Below, in pieces: positions 10,460 to 11,055 of a stretch of DNA of 11,763 nucleotides (positions are counted from its first letter, which is position 1; each line of letters starts with the position of its first letter). The DNA is taken from positions 1-11,763 of IMG/VR virus record IMGVR_UViG_2700989507_000007; one strand, 5' to 3'. The notes below the pieces were generated by a model. That model worked only from the letters and a program-made list of their open reading frames with translations, was not told where the DNA came from and did not search any database. A program made the position numbers and the translations under genes. Source of the stretch: a virus (lineage: Duplodnaviria > Heunggongvirae > Uroviricota > Caudoviricetes).

Positions 10460-10891
10460 ATGTTTGGTATTTTTGGTAAAAAAGCCCGCAGAGCGGCAAC
10501 GGAAATTAAAAAGTTTGAGAAACGCGATCTGGCACAGGCGGTGATTAACGCTGCATACCTGGTGGCCTATGCAGATGGTGAATGCGAGGCATCCGAGAAA
10601 GCGAAGATCGAACAGGTCTTACGTAATCAGCCTGCGTTGTCTGCGTTTACCTCGGAAATTAATGCGATTAGCGCAACCATTATCGGTCAGCTGGATACCA
10701 ATTTTAAAATTGGTCGTCGTGCCGCGTTACGCGAGATTGAGGATGTGAAACACGATACGCGTGAAGCGGAAGATGTGCTGGATGTGGCGGTGGCCATTGC
10801 GGAGGCAGACGGCGAAATTGAGCCGGAAGAGCGCAAGGTGCTGGAAGAGATTGCCGGTGTTCTGGGTCTTCGTCTGGAGAATCACCTGTGA
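10460..10891 (+). CDS. TerB-domain protein (tellurite-resistance TerB family), 143 aa
   Basis: Inside track ORF 10388..10891; preferred ATG 10460 with AAAGGA upstream. Two TerB-like helical segments (VINAAYLVAYADGECEASEKAKIEQVL and LDVAVAIAEADGEIEPEERKVLEEIAGVLGL). Confidence 0.7.
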   Translation: MFGIFGKKARRAATEIKKFEKRDLAQAVINAAYLVAYADGECEASEKAKIEQVLRNQPALSAFTSEINAISATIIGQLDTNFKIGRRAALREIEDVKHDTREAEDVLDVAVAIAEADGEIEPEERKVLEEIAGVLGLRLENHL

Positions 10892-11055
10892 CGGTAAAAC
10901 TGCGCCTGGCTGTGGCTGCACTCCTGCTGTTTCTGGTGGTGATGGTGGATTTCACCAGCAGAATCATGTCGGTGCTGGCGGATGGGGTGCTGGTCTGCGG
11001 CATTGTGGTATTGCTGTGGCCGGTGATAAAAAGAAACAGCCTGCATAATGCTTGA
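10888..11055 (+). CDS. small hydrophobic, probably membrane protein, 55 aa
   Basis: Not in the track. GTG start overlaps the TerB-like stop (GTGA) with GGAGA ~9 nt upstream; almost entirely hydrophobic (VTVKLRLAVAALLLFLVVMVDF...VLVCGIVVLLWPV). Confidence 0.4.
   Translation: MTVKLRLAVAALLLFLVVMVDFTSRIMSVLADGVLVCGIVVLLWPVIKRNSLHNA

Follow-up and report, generated by a model that had tools for sequence, protein, structure and literature searches.

The closest described relatives of the genes considered here come from bacteria and from phages. TerB is encoded in the ter operon (terZABCDEF), which contributes to resistance to tellurium, zinc, manganese, and oxidative stress, and for which phage inhibition and colicin resistance have been reported (PMC7371120). 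TerB is reported to be associated with the inner membrane and to bind the integral membrane protein TerC (PMC12054061 and PMC11003894, citing Turkovicova 2016; also Alekhina 2011, as cited elsewhere). TerB domains also accompany transmembrane or pore-forming proteins in the Bunzi, Shango, and Dionysus systems, where a role in membrane surveillance has been proposed, and Iyer and Aravind proposed that Ter genes carried by phages serve in competition with superinfecting phages (PMC7824862). In phage P1, a TerB-type protein and a small membrane protein were named TciA and TciB in 2004 (naming from the P1 GenBank notes and later papers). Here we describe a tciA-tciB pair (tciAB) in a lambdoid prophage, at positions 10460 to 11055 of an 11,763-nt stretch of Caudoviricetes DNA (positions 1 to 11,763 of IMG/VR record IMGVR_UViG_2700989507_000007); this whole stretch is referred to below as the window.

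The pair is almost certainly an instance of the TciA/TciB phage accessory module, which is already known and widely annotated. The two genes are as follows:

10460 to 10891, plus strand: tciA, ATG start, 143 amino acids (aa), predicted cytoplasmic all-alpha protein of the TerB fold
10888 to 11055, plus strand: tciB, GTG start, 55 aa, predicted membrane microprotein of the DUF3927 family

The P1 genes belong to the same two families and share the order and strand of the window genes, with stop and start abutting or overlapping; they too lie among tRNA genes and are accessory. P1 TciA is 41% identical to window TciA over its full length; P1 TciB matches the family hidden Markov model at E=2.7e-19 and is 58% identical to window TciB in the C-terminal half. 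Unlike the window, P1 has a third gene, tciC (36 aa, a single transmembrane segment), whereas no hydrophobic open reading frame (ORF) was observed 3' of window tciB, where a small RNA (sRNA) of the STnc100 family starts 5 nt past the stop. Control also differs, the P1 genes belonging to the early, C1-repressed ban operon and the window genes to what is probably a Q-dependent late region.

The TerB-TerC portion of the ter operon resembles the locus in that a TerB-type gene is followed by a gene for a membrane protein, and TciA residues 13-137 align with solved Klebsiella TerB (2JXU). It differs in that TciB has 55 aa and no similarity to TerC (PF03741), and in that terZ, terA, terC, terD, terE, and terF have no counterparts here. 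Tellurite resistance, phage inhibition, and colicin resistance are phenotypes reported for the ter operon and are candidates only for TciAB. Shango SngA, Bunzi BnzA, and Dionysus DinB (with the pore-forming DinC) likewise set a TerB-type domain beside membrane components. Those systems reside in host defence islands, whereas TciAB is phage-encoded; their helicase/ATPase, MAEBL, and four-transmembrane pore partners are absent near tciAB, and the PADLOC models were unmatched (the copy used predates Dionysus, described in 2025, so Dionysus was not among the profiles compared).

The TciA and TciB proteins

Profile comparisons placed TciA in the TerB family. Pfam TerB (PF05099) was matched at E=2.4e-16 with 60.5 bits (cut-off 24.4), and residues 26-138 fell on positions 2-109 of the 118-position profile, and phrog_632 ('tellurite resistance') was matched over residues 1-143 at E=2.6e-69. 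A profile built from 28 TciA homologues matched 2JXU at E=7.6e-15, with query residues 13-137 on residues 19-144 of the chain. The AlphaFold2 model (predicted local distance difference test score, pLDDT, 86.1; predicted template-modelling score 0.80) was all-helical, with seven helices; confidence was low in the basic N-terminal region (residues 1-20). The top Foldseek matches in the PDB were the TerB-clan structures 2H5N (probability 1.00, template-modelling score 0.53-0.62) and 2OU3 (probability 0.72), with weak E-values (0.02-1.2). NCBIfam yielded sub-threshold matches only (DjlA, YmfL, anti-sigma-E), which were uninformative.

An acidic ADG...E motif occurs twice in TciA, as A38-D39-G40...E46 and A116-D117-G118...E124. 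Among the 28 homologues, D39 and G40 were conserved in at least 90%, and E46, A116, D117, G118, and E124 were invariant. Such paired acidic motifs were reportedly proposed as the metal- or ligand-binding site of TerB by Anantharaman and colleagues in 2012. Overall, TciA is a full-length, soluble homologue of TerB.

TciB matched Pfam DUF3927 (PF13064) at E=4.3e-17 with 62.3 bits (cut-off 25) and phrog_1470, 'TciB-like inhibition of cell division or resistance to colicin', at E=4e-30. DUF3927 is a small family: an exhaustive search of 1.84 billion representative proteins resolved it into only 62 clusters at 50% identity, nearly all of stand-alone proteins of 49-65 aa, and the longer matches are best read as frameshifts or run-on ORFs. 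When 12 representatives were aligned, two hydrophobic segments lay at residues ~5-20 and ~34-47 (hydropathy maximum 2.83), separated by a conserved polar motif, D21-F-x-S-[RK]-x2-S-x3-D32-G; the same 12 share an invariant Arg near the N-terminus and a C-terminal W/F-P followed by basic residues. Window TciB carries every one of these hallmark residues. Its charged residues K4/R6 and K48/R49 follow the positive-inside rule, which suggests that both termini are cytoplasmic, and from their spacing the polar residues would share one face of a helix. No holin, toxin, or TerC (PF03741) family was matched by TciB in Pfam, no holin in PHROG, and nothing in PADLOC. A short tciA-5' match labelled 'DUF3927 domain-containing protein' in O104:H4 and other strains was set aside as a pseudogene remnant beside insertion-sequence elements.

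Coupling, pairing, and distribution

At the junction of the two genes, cacCTGTGAcgg, the tciB start GTG (10888-10890) and the tciA stop TGA (10889-10891) overlap by 4 nt; within the stop/start stretch CTGTGACGG the two codons share the bases GTGA. A GGAG lies 9 nt 5' of the tciB GTG, and a Shine-Dalgarno sequence, AAGGAA, lies 7 nt 5' of the tciA ATG. A GTG at 10388 would give a longer tciA, but the ATG at 10460 is preferred because the 143-position PHROG 632 profile aligns with residues 1-143 and the homologues have lengths of 140-148 aa. Between the window and the phages JLK-2012 and PPyecE_EH1910, the ratio of non-synonymous to synonymous divergence (pN/pS) was 0.03-0.06 for tciA, with pS up to 0.44, and 0.19-0.42 for tciB. 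Both genes are thus clearly kept as coding sequence by strong purifying selection, and the pair is far beyond chance. An antisense ORF (10704-11285, minus strand) and an ORF in another frame (10761-11048, plus strand) were taken as by-products; annotated records show no gene at either place.

The pairing extends to very distant members of the family. We compared the context of six DUF3927 loci whose proteins are 34-50% identical to window TciB. A TerB gene encoding 141-158 aa was located directly upstream in all six, with stop and start overlapping or abutting within 1-11 nt, and the stop/start coupling is therefore conserved across these distances. The same adjacency was observed in P1, JLK-2012, PPyecE_EH1910, the N4-like phage Pollock, and the Erwinia jumbo phage ChrisDB. 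In Pseudomonas phage AF (extracted locus L010, 1932-2153), the TerB stop forms an ATGA overlap with an unannotated 73-aa ORF that has one strong transmembrane segment. The product is unrelated to DUF3927 and may play a comparable part, as a small membrane partner, in a phage from outside the enterobacteria.

Several further loci were observed alongside these. Apparent natural fusions of TerB and DUF3927 (P0127, P0186, P0250, P0265, and P0292) were rejected as frameshifts or run-on ORFs and lend no Rosetta-stone support; the junction of P0127 (197 aa), TCDGKTAP, corresponds to window sequence read out of frame and marks a frameshift artefact. A distant TerB and DUF3927 pair on a 1.99-Mb chromosomal contig (L011, 1-5904) adjoins an SMC_N/AAA_23 protein with a metallophosphatase and lies near an AIPR (abortive-infection) protein. 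This setting resembles a defence island, though an equally good reading of the SMC/phosphatase block is that it is left over from phage SbcCD-like genes.

The module is common. The pair was located, over at least 80% of its length, in 803 of 5,426 complete Escherichia coli genomes (~15%), with a median of four and a maximum of ten matching places in those genomes that have any, and it is very common in prophages of Shiga toxin-producing and enteropathogenic E. coli (STEC and EPEC). The Prokaryotic Genome Annotation Pipeline (PGAP) names the products in E. coli 'tellurite resistance TerB family protein' and 'DUF3927 family protein'. TciA homologues were recovered from 131 phage records, many of them of virulent phages (Erwinia jumbo phages, Schitoviridae, and phages of Pseudomonas, Vibrio, and Pantoea; also Machinavirus); Pseudomonas phage PMBT3, for one, is lytic (PMC8421299). 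About half of one P1 subgroup has lost the tci operon (PMC9603915).

The closest relatives lie in lambdoid phages. In JLK-2012, which lacks stx, tciA and tciB are annotated in the same place, in the order Q, tRNAs, tciAB, yjhS, S-R-Rz, and a 'TciA/TerB-like protein' is annotated at the corresponding locus of PPyecE_EH1910. JLK-2012, PPyecE_EH1910, and Evi, all three stx-less, share with the window a TciA that is 98-99% identical and the order Q, tRNAs, tciAB, nanS-p, lysis genes. Their neighbours differ from those of the window (JLK-2012 has Asn, Thr, and Gly tRNAs, and PPyecE has a regulator and a toxin-antitoxin pair), and none of the differences is essential.

The original prediction for this locus had read the 143-aa ORF as a TerB-domain protein whose stop overlaps the GTG start of a 55-aa hydrophobic protein. 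The Pfam score above cut-off, the match to 2JXU, the TerB-clan structural matches, and the GTGA overlap all bear it out. The small ORF, whose conservation was then in question, belongs to DUF3927 and phrog_1470 and is under the constraint described above, and the pair is kept at this position in other lambdoid prophages, namely JLK-2012, PPyecE_EH1910, and prophages of E. coli. The further claim, that the pairing could be assigned no function, survives in part: the module has a name and annotations (P1, JLK-2012, PHROGs 632 and 1470, the E. coli genomes counted above), but searches of the literature recovered no experimental demonstration of its function.

The stx slot and late transcription

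The genes and signals that surround tciAB in the window are as follows:

7823 to 8386, plus strand: Q-like late antiterminator (Pfam DUF1133 E=2.9e-105, Phage_antitermQ E=2.6e-7, phrog_753 E=1.6e-75)
8960 to 10018, plus strand: N6/N4 DNA methyltransferase (Pfam N6_N4_Mtase E=5.4e-44), common to Stx2 phages by homology
10059 to 10134, plus strand: tRNA with CAT anticodon, called Met by ARAGORN and, on the identical gene, tRNA-Ile (ileZ-like) by PGAP
10215 to 10291, plus strand: tRNA-Arg (TCT)
10304 to 10333, plus strand: hairpin and T-run resembling an intrinsic terminator, 3' of tRNA-Arg
10340 to 10459, plus strand: leader of the tciAB cassette, with the Shine-Dalgarno AAGGAA; no sigma-70 consensus promoter was found in it
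11060 to 11252, plus strand: STnc100-family sRNA, full length (Rfam RF02076, 145.8 bits against a gathering score of 47, E=4.8e-33)
11253 to 11314, minus strand: AgvB (anti-GcvB) sRNA, full length (Rfam RF02702, 96.5 bits against 56, E=3.5e-18)
11462 to 11763, plus strand: 5' end of a sialate O-acetylesterase gene of the nanS-p/yjhS type, running off the window (Pfam DUF1737 at the N-terminus, E=6.7e-17)

Further 5' of tciAB, a DUF968/HNH protein and RusA precede the Q-like antiterminator, which is followed by a small conserved ORF, the methylase, and the tRNAs. Homology to Stx2 phages spans the methylase 3' end and the tRNAs and ends at window position ~10339, just past the hairpin; homology to Stx1 phages picks up at ~11075, which corresponds to ~95 nt beyond the stxB1 stop in BP-4795. 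Because these two junctions flank tciAB, the cassette (~10340-11075, ~735 bp) is placed at the stxAB position and, judged by the junctions, occupies that slot exactly. JLK-2012 and PPyecE_EH1910 share the leader along with tciAB, their homology to the window beginning at ~10303. In a prophage of E. coli 2013C-3342 the pair is a 100% match and the locus (window 10300-11470) is 99.8% identical; PGAP calls the esterase there a SASA family carbohydrate esterase, and holin, endolysin, spanin, and terminase genes follow. The stxAB cargo and tciAB therefore share an identical slot and flanks and, presumably, the same late-transcript logic. The proteins are unrelated: TciAB is not a toxin and has no known virulence role.

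The locus bears several signs of late transcription. In lambdoid late operons, expression is Q-dependent. Directly past the Q stop (window 8376-8490, plus strand), a promoter-like TTGCAA-17-TTCAAT was read by eye, followed at ~8469-8490 by a hairpin, CCACCGGAAGGTGG (CCACC/GGTGG), with a run of eight T residues, also read by eye and given by the consensus scan on the minus strand only. By analogy, this promoter-like element and short terminated leader would fit the lambda pR'/tR' arrangement. Other terminator-like hairpins between Q and tciAB were located at 8796-8813 and 10304-10323. Two scans of the plus strand from 7400 to 11763 returned no sigma-70 consensus match, although such scans miss weak or non-canonical promoters. 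With at least three terminator-like hairpins upstream and no promoter detected, tciAB is probably expressed only by Q-modified polymerase that has read through the hairpins once the prophage is induced, and Q-dependent late expression is a reasonable inference for this locus.

Late expression is nevertheless a trait of the lambdoid placement and not of the module. In P1, tciAB lies in an operon under C1 control, and in virulent phages, P1, and metagenomic contigs the module is placed among replication or early genes (DNA polymerase, primase, single-stranded DNA-binding protein, dUTPase). Because P1, N4-like, and metagenomic phages place it in such early or replication regions, late expression cannot be module-wide. 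The original prediction had put the pair at the position equivalent to stx, between the Q/tRNA cluster and the nanS-p-like gene, under late control by Q. The position is upheld by the junctions at ~10339 and ~11075. Late control is reasonable here, downstream of Q and of terminators and with no promoter found, but it does not extend to the module as a whole, which lies in early or replication regions in P1 and N4-like phages.

The module was observed amid tRNA genes in four unrelated phage types. In this prophage (window 10059-10291), Ile2/Met-CAT and Arg-TCT genes lie upstream of tciAB; in P1 (extracted locus L003, 2116-3776), Asn and Thr lie upstream and Ile-CAT downstream; in ChrisDB (L007, 886-3277), Trp and Cys lie upstream and Tyr, Gln, Ile, and Met downstream; in JLK-2012 (L001, 5757-5990), Asn, Thr, and Gly lie upstream. 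This neighbourhood may reflect a shared cargo hotspot, co-mobilization, or a functional link.

Downstream of tciAB, the STnc100 sRNA ends at a terminator at 11223-11240. A CATAAT with a preceding TG at 11042-11049, in the last tciB codons, is a possible STnc100 -10 element; if real, the sRNA promoter overlaps the 3' end of tciB. AgvB is a perfect match to the Rfam consensus and converges on STnc100, with the two terminators back to back; a weaker AsxR match overlaps it. Elsewhere in the window we observed:

2438 to 3651, minus strand: IS3-family insertion sequence with two overlapping ORFs (108 and 295 aa), lying in the prophage's early region
3254 to 3370, minus strand: ALIL frameshifting pseudoknot (120.9 bits), within the IS3-family element
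~5433 to 5990, minus strand: toxin-antitoxin pair, RelE/ParE and ParD, with the replication region on one side and the nin-like region on the other (basis: PGAP annotation of the 2013C-3342 prophage)

Possible functions of the pair

The proposal we favour takes TerB and TerC as its model. TciB would be an inner-membrane protein with cytoplasmic N- and C-termini and would recruit, anchor, or regulate TciA at the cytoplasmic face, as a miniature of TerB-TerC. The TciA-TciB complex would then act on inner-membrane integrity or on cation handling in the infected cell, and the result would be Ter-like protection against competitors, such as the entering DNA of a superinfecting phage or pore-forming colicins, until the phage cycle is complete. 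This mechanism, in which TciB tethers TciA as a membrane guard, is drawn by analogy and is offered tentatively, at somewhat less than an even chance of being right; the explanation as a whole, in which the identity of the pair is blended with the mechanism, stands at about even. Many carriers are virulent, and the module lies among early or replication genes, so a function exercised only in lysogens is unlikely; the number of virulent carriers likewise weakens the candidate roles in which the pair would protect a lysogen. Superinfection exclusion, abortive infection, envelope stress signalling, and lysis timing, the candidate roles of the original prediction, all stay in contention.

Several observations weigh against the proposal. 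Physical contact between TciA and TciB is proposed only, by analogy with TerB-TerC, and a single-chain fold of P0127, the frameshift fusion used as a proxy for the pair, was uninformative, with one long helix for the TciB part, a junction with pLDDT below 50, and no usable interface. Nor is the pairing without exceptions: in phages 434 and 2B8, TciB follows a 247-aa polytopic membrane protein in the same slot, without TerB, while Vibrio K481 and Pseudomonas PMBT3 carry a TerB gene with no small membrane ORF behind it. An Erwinia TciB-like protein is without the two conserved Asp residues. The scanned window ORFs and the genes that PGAP annotates in the near-identical prophage include no TerC, TerD, or other ter gene; TerC with TerD reportedly forms the smallest unit that confers tellurite resistance. 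TciA had no meaningful match among the PADLOC defence-system models (best, PDC-S48, E=0.004, 14 bits). Knock-down of P1 tciA, tciB, and tciC by CRISPR interference left plaquing unchanged, and the genes are thus non-essential (PMC10695390). Literature searches recovered no experimental work on TciA or TciB, only mentions at the level of annotation.

In phage 434 (extracted locus L024, 1612-2844, between Q and the SASA esterase), TciB matches DUF3927 at E=3.4e-14; the 247-aa protein has no Pfam match, and another membrane protein, of 62 aa, is encoded 3' of TciB.

Two other explanations also turn on conflict around the infected cell. TciA, held at the membrane by TciB, might mimic host TerB and, as a decoy, disrupt TerB-based surveillance (the ter island, Shango, Bunzi, Dionysus), allowing the phage to escape Ter-type inhibition. 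Virulent phages often carry the module, and it often lies in early regions, the usual place of anti-defence genes; the whole of TciA aligns with TerB itself, and activity against phages is reported for host TerB systems. For a mimic, however, the similarity of TciA to solved TerB is distant, with the profile match at E=7.6e-15 being weak in this respect, and some of the hosts and phage groups that carry the module were not shown to have a ter island; we consider counter-defence of this kind quite unlikely. The conserved polar residues of TciB invite a different idea, that a TciB oligomer forms a small cation pore lined by conserved Asp, Ser, and Arg/Lys, which TciA gates until a trigger (a competing phage or membrane damage) makes the module abortive or toxic. 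D21, S24, R/K25, S28, and D32 are conserved or invariant and spaced at i, i+3/4, i+7, and i+11, which would put them on one polar helix face; Dionysus couples a TerB-like protein with a pore-forming transmembrane effector, and the stop/start overlap fits a need for fixed stoichiometry. Against a pore stand the genomes with up to ten copies and no sign of toxicity control, the Erwinia homologue without either Asp, and the lack of holin, toxin, or PADLOC matches, and we hold it to be quite improbable.

The remaining explanations depend more on the lambdoid setting. As a lysogenic-conversion locus, the pair would give the host resistance to tellurite, metals, or oxidative stress, in keeping with its TerB homology, with the resistances to which the ter operon contributes, and with its enrichment in STEC and EPEC prophages. 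Such a role would have to do without TerC-TerD and every other ter gene, from a cassette that lies behind terminators with no promoter found and is probably silent in the lysogen. Many carriers are virulent and never lysogenic, and the authors who described PMBT3 doubted a role in tellurite resistance (PMC8421299); conversion is very unlikely to be the function. Equally doubtful, in our estimate, is an accessory role in lysis timing, by antiholin-like action or control of membrane energization, upstream of the holin-endolysin-spanin cassette. The late-transcript position, with the holin gene following after ~4.5 kb in the near-identical prophage, would suit it, as would the small size, two hydrophobic segments, and basic C-terminus that TciB shares with holins and antiholins. 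The idea is weakened because placement of the module varies between phages, those of P1, N4-like, jumbo, and metagenomic phages having it in early or replication regions far from lysis genes; in addition, no holin family was matched by TciB in Pfam or PHROG, and the prophage has its own class II holin downstream.

A broader reading would make TerB with DUF3927 a self-contained, two-protein sensor-effector of the inner membrane, a portable weapon in phage-phage and phage-host conflict that recurs in at least four unrelated phage architectures (lambdoid, P1-like, N4-like, and jumbo). It may act as a minimal superinfection-exclusion or abortive device, with an Asp-lined TciB effector and TciA as its gate, or a decoy against host TerB surveillance; recurrent placement by tRNA genes would then mark a common cargo hotspot or a co-mobilized unit. 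We consider this reading unlikely.

The two genes and their association are known from existing annotation, and they show nothing structurally unexpected. Their interest lies in the deep conservation of the pairing and the commonness of the module, not in surprise. For the biology of STEC, tciAB is the usual cargo at the site where toxin-converting phages carry stx. If the favoured model, of TciA tethered by TciB, is true, tciAB would be the smallest TerB-based membrane module known and would provide a simple system in which to ask what TerB senses, a question shared by the ter operon, Shango, Bunzi, and Dionysus.

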